Below, piece by piece: positions 33,357 through 60,799 of a stretch of 64,000 nucleotides of DNA (its first letter is position 1; every line of letters starts with the position of its first letter). The stretch comes from a virus (taxonomy: Duplodnaviria; Heunggongvirae; Uroviricota; Caudoviricetes). The stretch lies in the IMG/VR virus record IMGVR_UViG_3300046542_000259. One strand, written 5' to 3'. Under the pieces are notes generated by a model that did not search any database, was not told the origin of the DNA, and worked only from the letters and a program-made list of their open reading frames with translations. A program made the position numbers and the translations under genes.

Positions 33357-34778
33357 TTAAATTTTAGAGTTAGCTCGAACCTCGGAGAATTTAATTGGTG
33401 GTCGCAGATATTTACCACCCTCCCAAACCGGCTCAAGGAAGTTCTTAGTTCCGTGGCTTGCATTATCCAGATCAGCTTTCTTAATGGAAACTAGTTTGTC
33501 TCCATTAAAAACGACTGCCTGCCTACCTGCTTTACTAGCTTTGGACATATCCGTCTTTGGTCTCTTCTGGACATCGGTTCTGACGCCGTTAATAGTGACT
33601 TCGTTAGTCTTCATGGCCCACGAGAAATCGTCACGCATCGGAGCCTGAAGAAGTTGCCCTCCCATACCAAAAACTACGTTCTCGGCAGAGAATCCAGCAG
33701 AAGCGACGGCAAAAAGAATGTCGTTGATTGATTTACGGTTTACACCGTCTCCCTGAATAACTCGAACCTTTGGATTAAGAACTTTAAATTCTTTGGAATT
33801 AATCGTTGATCCAAATTTTTCGTCAAGCATTCTTAGAACACGCGGAACAACTTCCGTAGGCTCACCACTATCCGGTCTGACCACGATCCAGCCATCACGA
33901 GCTTCAATCTTTTCCTTATAAACCGTGCCGATGTACTCTGTAACGAAGCGATCAAGATCATAGCTGTCTGCAACAATCGAGATGATTGGATATCCCATAT
34001 CAGTAAAAGTATCAATCACCTTACCAATGAAAGCAGATTCTCCATCTTCTCCATTCATAGTCGTTACACTATGTTCCGTAGCGGGTACGGAAATAATTAC
34101 TGGACCATCTTTTTCTAGATCATGATCGTAGTAAACCACGGCGGCTTCGATGGCCTCAAGAGTATCCGATCCTAAGAAGGACAAGGCATGAGCCATACCA
34201 CCTAGAGACGCGGTTTCACCAGATGACACGCCGCGACCGGCGAAGTCATTCAGCGCACAAGCAAGAGTCATCGGATTATGGATATCCAGATCGGAAGTTT
34301 TCTTGTAAAATTCCGCAATATTTTTCTTGATTGCGCGAGAAAGCGTGGCGACCGTTGACGGATACCATATAGCCCGCAACAGACTCGTCTCAATTTCCGC
34401 CACGATCTCAGGCATTACGTCTGAGGAGATTTGAACCACCGGCACGCCATGAGGAACTACAGTACCTTCAGCAAGAGCTTCAATTTTTACCGGTACATAT
34501 CCATCGAATTCGTTAACAACTCTCTCCCACGTCTTGCGGCTGAAAGGAATCATGGCTGACTTAGCGTAACGTTCTGCCTTATCGATATCCTGAATTGTGA
34601 CTCGTTTCATCAGATATTCCCTGATGTAAGCCTGAAGCCCGAAGAATACAATTTCATCGGTCCAACCGGACCGAGCTTCGATGTAAGATACAGCTGATGT
34701 GATATCTTCTCGAACCACAAAAAGATGGCTGAATTTGTAAGCATCATTTGATGTAATAATATTTCTAGTAAGTAACAT
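33357..34778 (-). CDS. nadV: Nicotinamide phosphoribosyltransferase (NAMPT)
   Basis: The N-terminal NIITSNDAYKFSH matches the NAMPT [TS]DSYKxxH motif. 473 aa. AGGAGA RBS. Confidence 0.75.
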   Translation of the reverse strand: MLLTRNIITSNDAYKFSHLFVVREDITSAVSYIEARSGWTDEIVFFGLQAYIREYLMKRVTIQDIDKAERYAKSAMIPFSRKTWERVVNEFDGYVPVKIEALAEGTVVPHGVPVVQISSDVMPEIVAEIETSLLRAIWYPSTVATLSRAIKKNIAEFYKKTSDLDIHNPMTLACALNDFAGRGVSSGETASLGGMAHALSFLGSDTLEAIEAAVVYYDHDLEKDGPVIISVPATEHSVTTMNGEDGESAFIGKVIDTFTDMGYPIISIVADSYDLDRFVTEYIGTVYKEKIEARDGWIVVRPDSGEPTEVVPRVLRMLDEKFGSTINSKEFKVLNPKVRVIQGDGVNRKSINDILFAVASAGFSAENVVFGMGGQLLQAPMRDDFSWAMKTNEVTINGVRTDVQKRPKTDMSKASKAGRQAVVFNGDKLVSIKKADLDNASHGTKNFLEPVWEGGKYLRPPIKFSEVRANSKI

Positions 34779-34809: not shown

Positions 34810-35832
34810 TTAGATTCCGAGCATCGTCTCTATAATATCTCCGTGATCGTCAAATAATTCATCACGACGAATATCCTCAATTTTAATCCACTTAGCTTTC
34901 TTAGCATCGTCCCCACCTTTAACTTTTGGTAGTGGGCCACCTCCTCGCAACTTAATCAAGAAAGCATCGGTAATAACTCTTCCCCTAAGACTTCTGAAAG
35001 GATGATCGAATCTACGGGACCAAGAAATTGAACTAAGGATTTCTTCTTCTTTTAATTTAATTGTAGTTTCTTGAGTAAGTTCCGCTATCAAAGCCTCAAG
35101 AATAGTTTGGTCCTGCTCAATAAAGCCTCCCGGCAAAGCCCATAGATTTTTCCCCGGAAGCATTTTCCTCTGAATCATTAGGATACAACCGTTTTTTACT
35201 ACGACCGCATCTACTGTGTTAAAAGTTGGAGGAAATGGCGACGAAGCCCACTTAAGTTTATAATCTTTATAGTGTTGATATTCGTCTACAAGATTTTTAT
35301 AATCCTCGGTGTTGCTAAATTTGTACAACTCATTTAAAACATTAGGATGAACTAATTCTTCTGAAATCAATTCTCCTTCAAAAAACTTAGCACGAAGATC
35401 AGTAGCATTAATTTTCAAGTGGTTCTCAATTTCAATCGTGTCCCATTCATGAAAATTGCGGATATAAGCTCCGTGCTTATCTTTCACGTGACCGATAATA
35501 CCTATTTTTTTAGGCTTGTCAGTAAACCCATAAATCGACGTTGTTGTAGCATCTACCGCACTACGAACACTAGTCACGTATTTATCGTTGTTGTAAGGGT
35601 AGTCCCGTTGACCCAAAAAGTGAATACGCTTATTCGTTGATTCACCATAACATGACTGAATCATTTTTGCGCGTTCTGAAGCGGTAAAGGGATTTCGTGG
35701 GTTTCTAGCGATGTCAGCCGAACCTAAAATGGTGATGACATGCGGTGCTCGATCCAGAGCTTCGTCCAACAAGCGCTTGTGGGCGCGACTAAAGAGTTGG
35801 AATCTTCCATTCAATACGAGTGTATCGTACAT
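34810..35832 (-). CDS. natV: Bifunctional NMN adenylyltransferase / Nudix ADP-ribose pyrophosphatase (NadM-Nudix)
   Basis: N-terminal LNGRFQLFSRAH resembles the NadM GRFQPFHxGH motif. C-terminal Nudix box GGFIEQDQTILEALIAELTQET. ATG at 35832 with AGGAGA is preferred over the listed 35901 start. Confidence 0.7.
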   Translation of the reverse strand: MYDTLVLNGRFQLFSRAHKRLLDEALDRAPHVITILGSADIARNPRNPFTASERAKMIQSCYGESTNKRIHFLGQRDYPYNNDKYVTSVRSAVDATTTSIYGFTDKPKKIGIIGHVKDKHGAYIRNFHEWDTIEIENHLKINATDLRAKFFEGELISEELVHPNVLNELYKFSNTEDYKNLVDEYQHYKDYKLKWASSPFPPTFNTVDAVVVKNGCILMIQRKMLPGKNLWALPGGFIEQDQTILEALIAELTQETTIKLKEEEILSSISWSRRFDHPFRSLRGRVITDAFLIKLRGGGPLPKVKGGDDAKKAKWIKIEDIRRDELFDDHGDIIETMLGI

Positions 35833-35944
35833 TTTCACACATTCTCCTGTGGTAGTTCGGTTAGGTAGTCCACCATACTTCTTCGCATGATGTAAAGGCA
35901 CCTTAACATAATAAAATGATTATGTCAAGAACTTTTTGAATGAT

Positions 35945-49353: not shown

Positions 49354-50529
49354 GTGAACTACGAATTCCCACGAATCGTGCATATCAGCCAAGTCCTTGA
49401 AGCTATTGAAGGTGATGAAGACCTTTTTTACGTCGTTGAGAAAGAAGGCTATACCGTTATCAACTACAAGTTGCCATGCAATAAAACCTTCCCAGCAGTT
49501 GTAGATCGTAACACCGCGATTCGTCGGGAACTTCGGGGTATTAAATTTGATAATATTACTGGCGAAATTCTGGCTAGACCTTTTCATAAGTTCCACAACT
49601 ATGGCGAGAGAGAAGAAACTTTAGCCGCAAACGTTGATCTTTCTGTTGGTTATGATCGTTTAGAAAAGCTTGACGGCTCGATGGTTCACCCGTTGTTTCT
49701 TAACGGAAATTTCCGATGGAGCACCAAGATGGGTATCACTAACACTTCTATGCAGACCGAAACATGGTTGGCCCGCGATCCTCAGCAAGGGTTGTCACAA
49801 TTTATTAAAGAGTGCTGGAATGAGCGTGATACGCCAATATTCGAATGGTGCAGCCGCCAGAACCGCATCGTTGTGGATCATCCCGTAGATCGCCTAGTCC
49901 TTACCGCTGTTCGTAATAATTATAGCGGCGAGTATTGGCGCTATGAGGCATTAGAAGATTGTGGAAGTTACTTTGACATTGAGGTGGTGGCCATCGATAC
50001 CACCCCAATCAAAGATATGAAATCTTACTCTGAATCGATCTACGAAATTAAGAGTGACACAATCACTGAAGGCGAAGTGCTTCGGTTCCATGACGGTCAT
50101 ATGCTAAAGCTGAAGACGCAAGATTACGTCAATCTTCATCGTACCAAAGATAAGATTCAGAAAGAGCGTAATTTAGTCGCTGTCCTTCTCGCTTCTCAGC
50201 TTGACGATCTTAAGCCTTTCATGCTAAAAGAAGATTTGGCGAAGGCCGAGGCTTATGAAAATCAGTTGAGTCAGAACGTGGCTGATATTTGCGCCTCAAT
50301 CACAAGAGAAGCAAATCAGATTGTATCGTCGGAAATGTCACGTAAGGATTTTGCGTTAAATTCGAAAGCCGATCCATTCGTCCGTCAAATCATTTTCCAG
50401 CTATGGGACAAAAATTTTCCTGTGGATATAATTTCTGACGAAGTGATGAAACGCTTAACCGATGCTTGCGAGCATGAGCAGAAATTCGAACGACTTAAAT
50501 CAGTATTGTTAAAGGGGTGCGTGTGGTGA
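49354..50529 (+). CDS. rnlA: RNA ligase 1 (T4 RnlA-like)
   Basis: RGIKFDNITGEILARPFHKFHNYGE and LEKLDGSMV align with T4 Rnl1 [28 protein letters not shown] and TKEDGSLV (motif I lysine). 391 aa against 374. Confidence 0.75.
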   Translation: MNYEFPRIVHISQVLEAIEGDEDLFYVVEKEGYTVINYKLPCNKTFPAVVDRNTAIRRELRGIKFDNITGEILARPFHKFHNYGEREETLAANVDLSVGYDRLEKLDGSMVHPLFLNGNFRWSTKMGITNTSMQTETWLARDPQQGLSQFIKECWNERDTPIFEWCSRQNRIVVDHPVDRLVLTAVRNNYSGEYWRYEALEDCGSYFDIEVVAIDTTPIKDMKSYSESIYEIKSDTITEGEVLRFHDGHMLKLKTQDYVNLHRTKDKIQKERNLVAVLLASQLDDLKPFMLKEDLAKAEAYENQLSQNVADICASITREANQIVSSEMSRKDFALNSKADPFVRQIIFQLWDKNFPVDIISDEVMKRLTDACEHEQKFERLKSVLLKGCVW

Positions 50530-52152: not shown

Positions 52153-52320
52153 AAGCTCCCCCATGTCGGACCATTACACGAAAAACGGCGACCGAAATTG
52201 ATCAATTTGGTTATCCCGTGGATGACGGTAAAGATGTTCCCGGCTGGGAATATACAGAATTAAGGACATATGGGACCACAGATGTAATCCGTGTCCCAAC
52301 AAGATATATTGGAAATTATT

Positions 52321-52842
52321 ATGACAACGAAACCTCTTTTGATAGTTTTGGTTGGCTTCCCGGCGACAGGTAAATCTACGTTCCGAGAAGCTTTGAGGCT
52401 AAGGAACGGTTTTTCTTTCATGGCCATTAGTTCTGATGATTACATTGACCATGAAGCTAGATTACAAGGTAAAACCTACACCGAAGTGTTTGACAAAGCC
52501 GTTGGACCGGCAAACGTAGCGATTGAGGCAGATGCGAAAGCAGCTAAAATGCTTGGCGCGAACGTTGTTTGGGATCAAACTAATTTAACTGTGAAGAAAC
52601 GCAAAATAATCCTTGACAAATTCAAGGATTATGATAAAGTATGCGTATATTTTCCAATTCCTAATGATTGGTACAATCGTTTAGATAAACGGGCTGAAGT
52701 TGAGGGTAAGTTAATTCCCCATAATGTCCTAGGAAGTATGCAAGATTGTTTTGAATCTCCACGATTATCTGAGGGATTCTCATGGATTCATACTCCGGAA
52801 TCTTTCCTTAAGTATTTCGAAAATTTAATGGTAAGTAATTGA
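52321..52842 (+). CDS. Polynucleotide 5'-kinase (homologous to the T4 Pnkp N-terminal kinase domain)
   Basis: P-loop LVGFPATGKSTF aligns with T4 TIGCPGSGKSTW. WDQTNLTVKKRKIILDKF and IPHNVLGSMQ align with ISDTNLNPERRLAWETF and IPIDVLRSMY. ATG at 52321 within ORF 52291. Confidence 0.7.
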   Translation: MTTKPLLIVLVGFPATGKSTFREALRLRNGFSFMAISSDDYIDHEARLQGKTYTEVFDKAVGPANVAIEADAKAAKMLGANVVWDQTNLTVKKRKIILDKFKDYDKVCVYFPIPNDWYNRLDKRAEVEGKLIPHNVLGSMQDCFESPRLSEGFSWIHTPESFLKYFENLMVSN

Positions 52843-54372: not shown

Positions 54373-54850
54373 AACTGATCCCGAACTGGTAACACCGTTC
54401 GGGATTTGGCTATCAAATCATTTAAATCGAGGCGCTGATATTGTTTGGCCTTTTGTTCGTCAGCATACCTACGATATTTTAAAGAAGCAATTTTTTAATC
54501 AGACCTACGCCCTCCATGAGTCTTATCGACATCTGGAAGAATTTGAAGAATATCATTTTGGGTCCACCGAGTCCATAATGCCCTTTCCGTCCGGTGTGAT
54601 GAAATATAGCTACGAAGAATATTCACTTCTAGTTGCTCCGGTCGAACGGTTCAGAATCAAATTGGAACCTCTGCGCGGAGAATTTGAGATTGATACTAGG
54701 CATTTGATGGGCAGTCCTACAAAATATGTCCAAGAAAGAATAATTAAACAAATTGGCGAAACATGGCGACAACGGGGTGAAGCCGAAATTAGAAGATTTT
54801 TTGAGAGTTTAGAAGATAATGACCAAATTCGTAAAGTTTCCAAGTATTGA
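54353..54850 (+). CDS. Hypothetical protein
   Basis: Overlapping ORF. Confidence 0.35.
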   Translation: MTCTIFKTDPELVTPFGIWLSNHLNRGADIVWPFVRQHTYDILKKQFFNQTYALHESYRHLEEFEEYHFGSTESIMPFPSGVMKYSYEEYSLLVAPVERFRIKLEPLRGEFEIDTRHLMGSPTKYVQERIIKQIGETWRQRGEAEIRRFFESLEDNDQIRKVSKY

Positions 54851-55802
54851 AAAATTTAGTGACGTTAACGCTCATGTAAAGCGACATTTTGATGTTGAGA
54901 ACCGCCCAAAGGTTTTATACCGTGGTAAATGTAAGCTCCATGGCACTAACGCTTCGATTCGTGTCGATAGTGATGGATTAATTACCTGTGGTAAGCGATC
55001 AGATATTTGCACCATTGAGAGTGATAACGCTGGATTCGCCCGTCACGTAGAAACAATTAAAACTGAAATCCCGGTAATTGGTTTCAATTATGTTCTTTTT
55101 GGTGAATGGGCCGGTCCCGGTATCCAGAAAAAGGCAGCTGTTTCACTGATTGAGAAGAAGACATTTTTTGTTTTCGCTATGCTCAATCTAGAAACTGGCT
55201 ATATCGCTGTTGATCCCACTAGGATTGTGACTTGGCTAGGCACTAATATTCTGCCTTTTGAAATCATTCCTTGGCACTTAGATGCTACGGTTGAAATTGA
55301 CTTCCGACTTCAATCTTCTATGGAAGCTGCGATGAAACAGATCGGGGCATGGGTTGAGGCTTGTGATAAAGTTGACCCTTATGTCAAGGATCGCTACGGC
55401 ATTGAAGGCATTGGCGAAGGGTTCGTATTCACTCCGTTTGTTGATGAAATGCCGTTCACTGATTACAGTAATTATTTGTTCAAGGCAAAAGGGGAGAGCC
55501 ACGCCGGAACTAAGGGTGATAAGGCTAAGATTGAAATCGATCCAGCCGTTCTTGAAGGGGCTACAGCATTTGCGATTCAGTTTGTGACTGAGGCTCGGTG
55601 TAGTCAGGGCGTAACAGAGGCTTGTGACGGCGTAGCCGCGACTAAAAACATTGGACCTTTCATGGCTTGGCTCGGAGCCGATGTCAAGAAAGAATCAGTG
55701 AATGAATTAGAGGCTTCTGGTCTGGAATGGAAGCAAGTATCTAAAGCAGTTAACCAGTATGCAAGAGAATGGTTCTTACTAGAAATTGAAAAGGCGTTAT
55801 AA
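54819..55802 (+). CDS. rnlB: RNA ligase 2 (T4 RnlB-like)
   Basis: KLHGTNASI aligns with T4 Rnl2 KIHGTNFSL (motif I). FGEWAGPGIQKK aligns with FGEFAGPGIQKN. Confidence 0.75.
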   Translation: MTKFVKFPSIEKFSDVNAHVKRHFDVENRPKVLYRGKCKLHGTNASIRVDSDGLITCGKRSDICTIESDNAGFARHVETIKTEIPVIGFNYVLFGEWAGPGIQKKAAVSLIEKKTFFVFAMLNLETGYIAVDPTRIVTWLGTNILPFEIIPWHLDATVEIDFRLQSSMEAAMKQIGAWVEACDKVDPYVKDRYGIEGIGEGFVFTPFVDEMPFTDYSNYLFKAKGESHAGTKGDKAKIEIDPAVLEGATAFAIQFVTEARCSQGVTEACDGVAATKNIGPFMAWLGADVKKESVNELEASGLEWKQVSKAVNQYAREWFLLEIEKAL

Positions 55803-56159
55803 ATGTCAGATGTGAAAATTCAAGTCGGTGACGTATATTATGGTTCTTACGGAGGTGAGGTGGAAGTAGTTTATGTTTCCACCTTTGATGAAGTTGTGTT
55901 TAAATTTGACGACGGCTCCGTATCTATTCATGACAAATCAGATTTTCTCGATATGTTTACCAAAGACACAGTGGTAAGGACTTGGCTAACAGTATCGCGT
56001 GATGTGTCGGACGGTACGCTATTCTTTGACGCCAACAATTACGATAGCGAAAAAGAAGCAATTGATAGTTATCAATCGCATCACGGAATGTACCAACTGG
56101 TGGAAGTTGTTCCGGTAGAGTGGGTTTCTAATGTCAGTAAAGATGAGCCTCATGACTGA
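55803..56159 (+). CDS. Hypothetical protein
   Basis: TAAATG-coupled ORF. Confidence 0.35.
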   Translation: MSDVKIQVGDVYYGSYGGEVEVVYVSTFDEVVFKFDDGSVSIHDKSDFLDMFTKDTVVRTWLTVSRDVSDGTLFFDANNYDSEKEAIDSYQSHHGMYQLVEVVPVEWVSNVSKDEPHD

Positions 56160-56409
56160 TAAACCCGGATACCACCTCGCTATGATTGAGAAAGGCGTTC
56201 TTGGTGAATCTTCGAAAATTATGGAAGAGCTTCTTGAGCTTCAAGACGCGGAAAAGCAAGAATGCAAGATCATGGGACTGGTTGAACTGGCCGATCTTAT
56301 AGGCGCGGTGAAACATTATCTCGAACGTCATCATCCAAGCATCGATCTGTATGACCTAGAAACAATGGCGATCATTACGAAAAGAGCTTTTGATAATGGA
56401 AGACGATGA
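56152..56409 (+). CDS. MazG-like all-alpha nucleotide pyrophosphohydrolase (small)
   Basis: EELLELQDAEKQE...ELADLIGAV is an EExxE ... D acidic-pair pattern. ATGACTGA start/stop overlap. Confidence 0.4.
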   Translation: MTDKPGYHLAMIEKGVLGESSKIMEELLELQDAEKQECKIMGLVELADLIGAVKHYLERHHPSIDLYDLETMAIITKRAFDNGRR

Positions 56410-56608
56410 CGGTTTCATATATTATGATTATGAATATAACGAAGATTATGAAAAACTCAAGGAATTATACATCAGCAGGATTCGGGAGCTTGAAAGGAGA
56501 TATCAAGCGGAGATTAAAGGATATCTAGAACTATTGGCTGATCTTGAATGTACTAGAATTCCTAAATATAGTATAAATAAGGAAGGGTTAGTTAGTGGAA
56601 GACGATGA
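56390..56608 (+). CDS. Hypothetical protein
   Basis: Coupled ORF. Confidence 0.3.
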   Translation: MIMEDDDGFIYYDYEYNEDYEKLKELYISRIRELERRYQAEIKGYLELLADLECTRIPKYSINKEGLVSGRR

Positions 56609-57137
56609 TAGAATTGACTGGCAGTTGATCTCAGAAGCTATGAATTTTTATAAATCCGTTGGTTTCACAGAAATCACAGTTCCGTGGCACGTCATGACAG
56701 AGGTATCAAATATTACTTGCCCTAGTCCAGATAAGGCGTATCCTTTTGAAGACGGTCTTCTCGTCGGCTCGGCGGAACAATCTCTGATCCAGATGGGGAT
56801 TGCAGGGAAATTAGAGACAAACGTTCCTTTCGTGACTTGCACTCCCTGTTTCCGCAACGAATACGAGCTAGATCGTTTTCATCAAAAATATTTCATGAAA
56901 GTCGAACTTTTCATTTGGGGCGAATATGCCGTTGCCTCTTTAATGGGTGTGGCTCGTAAATTTTTCAGAACAAAGACTGGAAAAATACTTGACCTGTCTC
57001 AGCAAAGTACTGGCTTCGATCTAGAAATAAATGGTGTAGAAATTGGTAGTTATAGCTACCGTAAGTTTAGGGACCATAGTTGGACCTGTGGCACAGGACT
57101 GGCGCTACCAAGATTTAGTAAGGTGCGACATGACTAA
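56595..57137 (+). CDS. Truncated class II aminoacyl-tRNA-synthetase catalytic-core-like protein
   Basis: VGFTEITVPW (motif 1-like G[FY]xE[IV]xTP) and CFRNEYELDRFHQKYFMKVELF (motif 2 FRNE...EFTxxE). Aligns by eye to the LysRS/EpmA core. 180 aa. Confidence 0.45.
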   Translation: MEDDDRIDWQLISEAMNFYKSVGFTEITVPWHVMTEVSNITCPSPDKAYPFEDGLLVGSAEQSLIQMGIAGKLETNVPFVTCTPCFRNEYELDRFHQKYFMKVELFIWGEYAVASLMGVARKFFRTKTGKILDLSQQSTGFDLEINGVEIGSYSYRKFRDHSWTCGTGLALPRFSKVRHD

Positions 57138-57285
57138 CATTACATACCTCAATAATTATAAAATAAATAAACTTCACCGAGAGGCTGACACGGCTACGAG
57201 GGCGGGCGATTATGCCGTGGCGTTAGCTAAATTGAGTGAGTCTTTGGAAGTCATTGAATTTATTAAGACAAAGCACGTCGATTAA
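57129..57285 (+). CDS. Small hypothetical protein
   Basis: ATG 57129 within ORF 57043. Confidence 0.25.
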
Positions 57286-59893: not shown

Positions 59894-60799
59894 ATGATTA
59901 AGAATACTATGCTCGCCGCTGTTATTGCCATTTCTGGTATGGCATTTGCCGCTCCTGTCATGGCTCAAGGTGCTGCACTTCCTGTCCTCAAGCTCTGCAC
60001 CGGAGCAAAGGGTGGTAATTATGAATTCGTTGGTCTAACGACTCAGCGCCAGCTTCGCGGCGTTATCGATGTGCAACTCGTCTCCACCAATGGCGGCGAA
60101 GAAAATCTCAAGCTGATCGCCAATGGTACTTGTGACGCTGGACTGGCACAGTCTGATACGATTTGGGGTGCTGGTTCCATCGACGCCAATTCCATTTCCA
60201 CTCTTTACACCGAGTATGTTCACCTCCTTTGTAACAAGGAAAGTGGAGTCGAATCTTTCTCCGATCTGAAGAAGGGTAATTCGGTCTTCGCTGGGACAAA
60301 GGGCGGCGGTGCAGATTCTACTATTCGCGGCCTCATCAAGGCTGACAAGGAATATGGTGGAAACGATTACGATGGTTTAGCTATTATCAATGAAGATAAT
60401 AAGACTGCGCTGGTTGATCTAACTGAAGGAAATCGGGCTCAGTGCATGGTTTACGTCGGTAGTCCCGGTAACGCTCTGATGGAAAGCGCTGAAAAGCGTA
60501 ACGCAACACTGGAACTTGTTCCGGTTCAGGATAAGGATTTTAATGACGTGACTTATAAGGATAAGAGCGGGACGGAAAGCTCAGTTTGGAATCCTACCAC
60601 TCTCGCCGCTAATTCTTATGGCAAGATCATGCCGGATGGCGCGATGTGGGGCAACGCTGATCTTGAAACCATCGGCGTGCTGGCCAAGTTCCTCGTTTCA
60701 AGTTCTTGGAAGTCAAACAATATTGAGGCTTATGGTGAGCTAGGTGACGCTGTTCTAGGTGTTGGTGATATTGTCCGCGCCGAAAAGAAGCTCAATTGA
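59894..60799 (+). CDS. Secreted periplasmic solute-binding protein (TAXI-TRAP/PhnD-like fold)
   Basis: Signal peptide MIKNTMLAAVIAISGMAFAAPVMA|QG. ENLKLIANGTCDAGLAQSD resembles the TAXI motif ENLRLLRSGEADLALVQSD. AAGGAGAAAC RBS. GC is locally higher. Confidence 0.45.
   Translation: MIKNTMLAAVIAISGMAFAAPVMAQGAALPVLKLCTGAKGGNYEFVGLTTQRQLRGVIDVQLVSTNGGEENLKLIANGTCDAGLAQSDTIWGAGSIDANSISTLYTEYVHLLCNKESGVESFSDLKKGNSVFAGTKGGGADSTIRGLIKADKEYGGNDYDGLAIINEDNKTALVDLTEGNRAQCMVYVGSPGNALMESAEKRNATLELVPVQDKDFNDVTYKDKSGTESSVWNPTTLAANSYGKIMPDGAMWGNADLETIGVLAKFLVSSSWKSNNIEAYGELGDAVLGVGDIVRAEKKLN

Follow-up and report, generated by a model that had tools for sequence, protein, structure and literature searches.

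Analysis of a 64,000-nucleotide stretch of phage DNA (IMG/VR virus record IMGVR_UViG_3300046542_000259, Caudoviricetes; the whole stretch is called the window below) revealed a gene for a complete, unusually small seryl-tRNA synthetase (SerRS) catalytic core without any tRNA-recognition part, encoded beside a probable nucleoside triphosphate (NTP) pyrophosphohydrolase of the MazG/HisE type. The core and this partner constitute a widespread two-enzyme phage module. We are close to certain that the core is a complete, minimised class II domain of the bacterial SerRS type, which has kept motifs 2 and 3, a probable motif 1 and all aligned ATP- and serine-site positions, and in which the N-terminal coiled-coil tRNA arm and the C-terminal tail are gone, the motif-2 loop is six residues shorter and several insertions at the surface are absent. 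We are equally sure that it belongs to a conserved two-gene module with a protein of about 80 residues that carries the MazG/HisE acidic metal-binding motif. The core family is already visible in databases, though mislabelled; its size and its pyrophosphatase partner set it apart. An initial annotation of the gene, made from the sequence without database searches, had overlooked the partner encoded just upstream, with which the core is almost always paired and now and then fused. This pairing is the strongest clue to the function of the module.

Fold, active site and distribution of the core

The open reading frame (ORF) of about 180 codons described in the initial annotation is present exactly at 56595–57137 on the plus strand (Table 1). 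Its closest available relative, found on an ENA metagenome contig, is 80% identical and has an ATG at the equivalent start position, and its stop lies no more than two codons from the equivalent place. Comparison of the two genes gave a nonsynonymous divergence (pN) of 0.135 and a synonymous divergence (pS) of 0.88, and the core gene is therefore under strong purifying selection. A megablast search of the region against GenBank phages returned no close relative.

The Pfam model tRNA-synt_2d matches the core with 21.2 bits against a gathering score of 19.8 (E 2.3e-4). A search of the PDB with the single core sequence returned nothing relevant. The family profile, run against PDB sequences, ranked SerRS first (E 1.6e-6), which supplies the match to class II cores that the initial annotation had proposed to look for, followed by PylRS (E about 2e-3). 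The AlphaFold2 model of the core has a predicted local distance difference test (pLDDT) score of 96 and the antiparallel beta-sheet with flanking helices of class II enzymes, and its superposition on SerRS cores covers 174–177 of the 180 residues. The description of the protein as a truncated class II core thus holds for a stand-alone class II core and fails for the truncation. The accompanying view that the protein's length leaves no room for motif 3 proved mistaken: motif 3 is present at W163-TCGTGLALPRF-174, where the model has a strand (161–171) followed by a helix (173–179), and is paired with NGSGLAVGR of SerRS.

For residue-level comparison, the E. coli SerRS sequence was taken from the MG1655 genome. 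Profile alignment with hhalign placed core residues 19–180 onto SerRS residues 185–406 (E 4.6e-6) and paired LVGSAEQ with LIPTAEV, TPCFRNE with TPCFRSE, YFMKVEL with QFDKVEM, FDLEI with YDLEV, VEIGSYS with REISSCS and CGTGLALPR with NGSGLAVGR. Pairwise alignment of the C-terminal part of the core alone with E. coli SerRS was not significant, and the C-terminal equivalences rest for this reason on the profile alignment and the structure.

Conservation was read from an alignment of 60 family members. The invariant positions are T41, VGSAEQ57–62 (V57, G58, S59, A60, E61 and Q62, within the counterpart of the SerRS amino-acid-site motif), PCFR84–87, F100, K102, E104, L105, D142, E149, G151, S152, Y153 and R156, and, in motif 3, G166, T167, G168, A170, P172 and R173. 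Both segments quoted in the initial annotation, VGFTEITVPW (residues 22–31) and CFRNE...YFMKVELF (85–106), are present as given. In motif 1, G23 is kept in 58/60 and W31 in 57/60 homologues, and the proline expected at the dimer interface (P30) is substituted in some of them. Motif 2 contains CFRNE (85–89) and F100-M-K-V-E104, with a loop 6 residues shorter than that of E. coli SerRS; R87, F100 and E104 are invariant in 60/60, so that the motif-2 arginine singled out for inspection in the initial annotation is intact.

The site residues pair with those of E. coli SerRS as S59/T237, E61/E239, R87/R268, E89/E270, F100/F287, E104/E291, E149/E355, S152/S358, T167/S391 and R173/R397. In the T. thermophilus SerRS–adenylate structures, contacts to the amino group, to the hydroxyl of serine and to Mg-ATP are made by the TxE motif, the glutamate of the motif-2 strand, the E-x-x-S segment and the motif-3 threonine or serine. 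All aligned serine- and ATP-site residues are invariant in the core family except E89, which is E in 51/60 and D in 8/60. The motif-2 and motif-3 arginines form the ATP 'arginine tweezers' conserved in class II enzymes (PMC8821087).

Relative to SerRS, the core lacks roughly 170–185 N-terminal residues, 6 residues of the motif-2 loop, insertions that amount to some 50 residues and about 24 residues at the C-terminal end. Its first residue corresponds to about position 170–185 of E. coli SerRS, and it has no N-terminal domain and no coiled-coil arm; this arm is the chief tRNA-Ser recognition element of SerRS. As the initial annotation had noted, an anticodon-binding domain is lacking, and there is no other tRNA-binding domain. 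The NCBIfam model serS (TIGR00414) scores the core at 14.7 bits against a cut-off of 301.65. By these comparisons the core has a predicted SerRS-type active site, yet lies outside the SerRS family proper.

A search of a large protein database found 571 core homologues, nearly all of 177–205 residues among the matches listed. An exhaustive profile search of 1.8 billion representatives returned 1452 clusters at 50% identity with E<=1e-10 and only 1704 matches at E<=0.001, so that the family is large and well separated from canonical synthetases. Many lineages of large phages are represented: carriers include rV5- and phi92-like coliphages, T4-like Acinetobacter phages, Caulobacter and Brevundimonas jumbo phages, and Microcystis and Campylobacter phages, and the family is also present in rhizobial chromosomes. 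The rhizobial copies are surrounded by unannotated genes, with a SIR2-domain or AbiEii-family gene in the vicinity (L085/L086/L087 443–1270; L088 12375–13226), and these islands could be cryptic prophages or defence islands. In Caulobacter- and Brevundimonas-phage-like relatives, members of the core family (P0058, P0108, P0247, P0259; L003 4755–5564) carry an N-terminal helix-hairpin-helix (HhH) domain resembling RNA_pol_A_CTD, the C-terminal domain of the RNA polymerase alpha subunit (RpoA-alphaCTD), and this domain hints at contact with nucleic acid or RNA polymerase.

PHROG 4806, named 'histidyl tRNA synthetase', matches the core over its full length (E 3e-39). Labels within the family vary between this name, 'putative seryl-tRNA synthetase', 'putative tRNA synthetase' and 'hypothetical protein' (PHROG 4806; GenBank phage records, for example NC_049441.1, NC_052654.1 and MW250786.1). 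The 'histidyl' label is misleading, and the synthetase labels are without support from domain content. A literature search found the family mentioned at the level of annotation labels only, and to our knowledge it has never been studied.

The MazG/HisE-like partner and its pairing with the core

The partner was first seen by comparison of annotated phages: a small gene upstream of the core gene has homologues at that place in a Phapecoctavirus, a Brevundimonas jumbo phage and a T4-like Acinetobacter phage, and ORF 56131–56409 is its equivalent in the window. A database entry of 88 residues is 100% identical to the window's partner, so the ATG at 56143 may be the true start of its gene. Its PHROG family has no assigned function in PHROGs. 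Selection on the partner gene was measured at pN 0.059 and pS 0.57, and the mean pairwise identity among partners (0.47–0.50) is higher than among cores (0.37–0.39).

Among 48 partner homologues, G13, Y14, H15, I19, G22, G25, S28, K29, E32, E33, E36, D39, Q43, E52, L53, D55, G58, T83, F87 and R92 are invariant. E32, E33, E36 and D39, together with E52 and D55, fall on predicted helices 27–42 and 46–67, and the pattern EExxE..D followed by E..D is the metal-binding signature of the all-alpha NTP pyrophosphohydrolases MazG and HisE. PRA-PH was the sole recurrent Pfam match (14/48 members at E<=0.01, best E 2e-4), and NCBIfam returned a weak match to the HisE domain. The partner is modelled as a compact three-helix protein (pLDDT 91), whose most specific structural neighbours, at 20–27% identity, are E. 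coli MazG, HisIE, PRA-PH and S. solfataricus MazG. These concordant but individually sub-threshold signals make the partner a probable NTP pyrophosphohydrolase of the MazG/HisE type. We also considered whether it might be a detached SerRS coiled-coil arm, and rejected this in view of the compact three-helix model with MazG/HisE motifs.

Pairing was surveyed in 84 loci, consisting of 80 IMG/VR loci found with the core profile, three GenBank phages and the window. A partner gene on the same strand adjoins the core gene in 82 of them, within 50 nt upstream in 34, at 51–900 nt upstream in 42 and just downstream in 6. In one of the two loci without a partner, the core lies at the contig edge. The 82 paired loci represent 58 clusters at 60% identity, and the pairing is therefore not a product of redundancy. 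A reverse search seeded with the partner found a core gene on the partner's strand, no more than 4 kb away, in 79/80 loci. Natural fusions were recovered in the exhaustive search in both orders, partner–core (P0355) and core–partner (P0272, P0353).

After the pair itself, the largest clusters of neighbouring genes consisted of antisense shadow ORFs or were confined to particular lineages, such as ribonucleotide reductase (RNR) in 18/84 loci. Frequent neighbours are nucleotide-metabolism genes, among them RNR, a gene resembling deoxynucleoside monophosphate (dNMP) kinase, a second MazG and redoxins. An RNA ligase was considered as a general neighbour and rejected on the basis of the same survey.

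In rhizobial chromosomes and in six jumbo-phage loci, the partner domain forms the C-terminus of a protein of 265–320 residues, preceded by a domain of about 190 residues with the motif HxWH...HDHRYDFRS...H (L085 6660–7628, L088 7187–8014; L018, L022, L025, L031, L043, L075). Searches with this domain gave no Pfam or PDB match, and the names of its homologues were uninformative. A few stand-alone copies of it were also found (P0407, P0409, P0414).

Proposed reaction and alternative explanations

The core would bind ATP and serine, or a closely similar small hydroxy-amino acid, and convert them to seryl-AMP with release of pyrophosphate (PPi). The seryl group would then be passed to an acceptor other than the conventionally recognised tRNA-Ser, since the core is without the elements that recognise this tRNA. 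The partner would hydrolyse an NTP to the monophosphate and PPi, and the acceptor or a co-substrate, prepared or processed by the partner, would be a nucleotide or a group attached to nucleic acid. Such a nucleotide-linked compound appears the most likely because the partner, a probable NTP pyrophosphohydrolase, is inseparable from the core in genomes and is sometimes fused to it. The role of the module would lie in phage nucleotide or nucleic-acid modification, or in counter-defence, rather than in bulk translation. The frequent nucleotide-metabolism neighbours speak for this reading, as does the precedent of MazZ and PurZ, discussed below. We assign a probability of roughly 0.4 to this reading, in which a serine-adenylating ligase works with an NTP pyrophosphatase on a non-canonical, probably nucleotide-linked acceptor.

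Several observations weigh against it. The analysis identified no acceptor of the seryl group, and the serine specificity of the core is read from the alignment rather than from a modelled complex. A third gene conserved throughout the family was sought in the 84 loci and not found. Modified DNA is not known from well-studied carriers such as the rV5-like and phi92-like coliphages. The RNA-repair genes just upstream of the module (Rnl1-like, Pnk-like and Rnl2-like) and the RpoA-alphaCTD-like HhH domain on some members would also fit a tRNA substrate. As to the partner, its individually scored members fall under the gathering score of Pfam PRA-PH, its structural matches have Foldseek E values above 0.7, and hhalign gave no significant alignment of its profile with E. 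coli MazG or HisI, each taken as a single sequence. A more far-reaching statement joins two possibilities: that the core is the smallest natural class II synthetase to aminoacylate RNA without a dedicated tRNA-binding domain, as a counterpart of the engineered 'urzymes', or that core and partner make a new serine–nucleotide conjugate, which large phages would use for hypermodification of nucleic acid or for defeating host immunity. We put this forward tentatively, with the balance of our judgement against it.

The strongest alternative is a genuine minimal SerRS, in which the core would charge tRNA-Ser of the host or of the phage, or a less strictly defined range of tRNAs. Binding of the tRNA would be supplied in trans, through a heterodimer with host SerRS that contributes its arm, by the partner protein or by the appended HhH domains. 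SerRS binds tRNA across its dimer, which is the basis of the heterodimer route. Conservation of the whole SerRS catalytic set agrees with this explanation, as does the frequency of translation-related genes in large phages. It is kept alive by the RNA-repair set, which lies directly upstream both in the window phage and in a close relative, and by the HhH fusions, since an N-terminal domain of this kind could bind nucleic acid. Against these points stand the absent coiled-coil arm, the shortened motif-2 loop, the very low serS score, the absence of tRNA genes from the 64-kb window, and the wide gap between the family and SerRS, with so few matches among the representatives searched. The obligate and sometimes fused partner is a further difficulty, as we know of no canonical aminoacyl-tRNA synthetase (aaRS) with an obligate or fused NTP-pyrophosphatase partner. 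We hold a minimal SerRS to be unlikely, though a serious competitor.

The tight pairing of the two genes could also reflect a nucleotide-signal or stress module, in which the core would make dinucleoside polyphosphates of the Ap4A type, or keep tRNA charged, while the partner degrades alarmones or immune nucleotides, the two together blunting host starvation or defence signalling. Synthesis of Ap4A-type compounds is a known side reaction of SerRS, and a link to ppGpp has been made for MazG-type enzymes, which hydrolyse NTPs. However, a synthase fused to a hydrolase of its own product would be futile, and neither protein matches any PADLOC model, which is weak evidence because that library covers defence-system proteins and not phage anti-defence proteins. 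We consider such a module improbable.

The initial annotation had suggested a decoy for a host synthetase, and a catalytically silent regulator, which would bind or titrate a host factor (SerRS or another), would have precedents in SLIMP and HisZ, class II cores that became regulators (PMC9437257). The variable motif-1 proline at the dimer interface would be compatible with such a role. HisZ has no adenylation activity (PMC9437257), and a HisZ-like model therefore predicts relaxed catalytic positions. Across the 60 aligned sequences of the core family, both ATP-binding arginines and every further aligned position of the catalytic and serine sites are invariant, except E89 (E/D in 59/60), and no HisG is encoded nearby. 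The decoy idea thus fits poorly, and we rate it as very improbable.

Finally, although its length is less than half that of SerRS, we discount a truncated aaRS pseudogene fragment, which the initial annotation had allowed for, almost entirely, because the model shows a whole fold, with motifs 2 and 3 and a probable motif 1, hundreds of homologues (among the 571 found) have equal length, start and stop are conserved in the relative, and pN lies far below pS.

Genomic setting and comparison with known systems

The window is part of a large lytic phage, with genes for a primase, rIIA/rIIB, a DNA ligase and nicotinamide phosphoribosyltransferase (NAMPT). The module lies just downstream of the RNA-repair gene set and upstream of an SNF2 helicase gene (Table 1). 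The set suggests repair of tRNA or RNA breaks made by host anticodon nucleases. A search for tRNA genes found none in the 64-kb window, and a PADLOC search gave no match for core or partner. NAMPT and the ORF adjoining it could be an NAD+ salvage or reconstitution pair. A further ORF, of the NMT1/THI5-like type, is unusual in a phage and is kept in relative L089.

Two small clade-specific ORFs flank the core gene. Both are kept in the closest relatives (L089, L005–L007), with overlapping stops and starts. The ORF of 72 residues has a composition that looks helical and a counterpart of 50–72 residues at the equivalent place in these relatives; it gave no Pfam, PHROG or PADLOC match. The ORF of 51 residues has a conserved counterpart of 53 residues in L089 and no family match. 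A 12-nt repeat, GGAAGACGATGA, at 56398 and 56597 was considered as an insertion scar and rejected for a simpler explanation: GRR-stop is the shared ending of the partner and the 72-residue ORF, and MEDD the shared beginning of the downstream genes that overlap them.

Table 1 Features of the module and its surroundings in the window, by position
Feature	Position	Strand	Remarks
Nicotinamide phosphoribosyltransferase	33357–34778	-	phrog_448, E 1e-145
ORF adjoining it	34810–35901	-	363 aa
T4 Rnl1-like RNA ligase	49354–50529	+	phrog_562
Pnk-like P-loop kinase	52291–52842	+	phrog_505/2071; AAA_33 in relative L089
Rnl2-type RNA ligase	54819–55802	+	PF09414, phrog_548
Partner, probable MazG/HisE-type NTP pyrophosphohydrolase	56131–56409	+	~80–92 aa, mainly helical; PHROG 6408
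Small clade-specific ORF	56390–56608	+	72 aa from TTG, ~70 aa from ATG at 56396; between partner and core
Ribosome-binding site of core gene	56580–56587	+	AGGAAGGG, 7 nt before GTG
Mini SerRS-like class II adenylating core (predicted)	56595–57137	+	180 aa, GTG start
Probable motif 1, GFTEITVPW (residues 23–31)	56661–56687	+	aligned to E. coli SerRS GYSENYVPY
LVGSAEQ (residues 56–62), counterpart of SerRS 'TAE' amino-acid-site motif	56760–56780	+	aligned to LIPTAEV 234–240
Motif 2, TPCFRNE...YFMKVEL (residues 83–105)	56841–56909	+	aligned to TPCFRSE 264–270 and QFDKVEM
EIGSYSYR (residues 149–156), counterpart of SerRS E-x-S-S-x-S...R	57039–57062	+	aligned to REISSCS 354–360, ARRM 366–369
Motif 3, CGTGLALPRF (residues 165–174)	57087–57116	+	aligned to NGSGLAVGR 389–397 of E. 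coli SerRS
Small clade-specific ORF	57130–57285	+	51 aa; ATG overlaps core gene end
NMT1_3 / NMT1-THI5-like ORF	59894–60799	+	301 aa; PF16868, E 2e-13; phrog_6856

Among known systems, SerRS is the best match by profile and by structure, and shares with the core motifs 2 and 3, probably motif 1, and the signatures TPCFR-E, F-x-K-V-E, D-L-E, E-x-x-S and G-(S/T)-G-L-A-x-x-R. It differs in length (430 residues against 180 in the core) and in the core's pairing with a MazG/HisE-like protein. The amino acid:[carrier protein] ligases (for example Bll0957, PDB 3MEY) derive from the zinc-dependent, methanogen-type SerRS and have about 300 residues, whereas the core appears nearest to bacterial-type SerRS; they adjoin a gene for a phosphopantetheinyl carrier protein, and the core adjoins an NTP-pyrophosphatase-like gene. 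No PP-binding or acyl carrier protein (ACP) match was found among the neighbours of core genes.

EpmA/PoxA (GenX) and AsnA/archaeal AS-AR are likewise class II cores without tRNA-binding domains, and acylate EF-P or ammonia; the remark in the initial annotation that stand-alone cores of this sort usually act on non-tRNA acceptors is borne out. HisZ, a regulatory paralogue of HisRS, works with HisG, whereas the core has invariant catalytic positions and SerRS as its closest family, and no HisG-like gene occurs among the recurrent neighbours of the core family. Each of these stand-alone class II cores, EpmA, AsnA, HisZ and the carrier-protein ligases, revealed unexpected non-translational chemistry. 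The core, at about 180 residues, is much smaller than these and keeps motifs 2 and 3, a probable motif 1 and a predicted SerRS-type active site, and it bears on the minimum size of a working class II synthetase. Its combination with a tiny, probable NTP pyrophosphatase was found described in no paper. Identification of the product would probably add new phage nucleotide or RNA chemistry, and would also correct the widespread misannotation as 'histidyl' or 'seryl' tRNA synthetase.

Glu-Q-RS (YadB) is a truncated aaRS that has no anticodon-binding domain and loads the amino acid it activates onto a modified nucleobase (PMC9437257). It differs from the core in that it belongs to class I, acts on the queuosine of tRNA-Asp and has no partner protein. 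The closest functional analogy for the module is provided by phage MazZ and PurZ of the 2-aminoadenine Z-genome pathway. PurZ is a homologue of adenylosuccinate synthetase and not an aaRS, so that the likeness is one of logic rather than of homology or product. In that system MazZ, a small NTP pyrophosphatase of the MazG/HisE fold, is encoded beside PurZ and supplies dGMP to this ATP-dependent amino-acid-ligating enzyme (PMC8342488).

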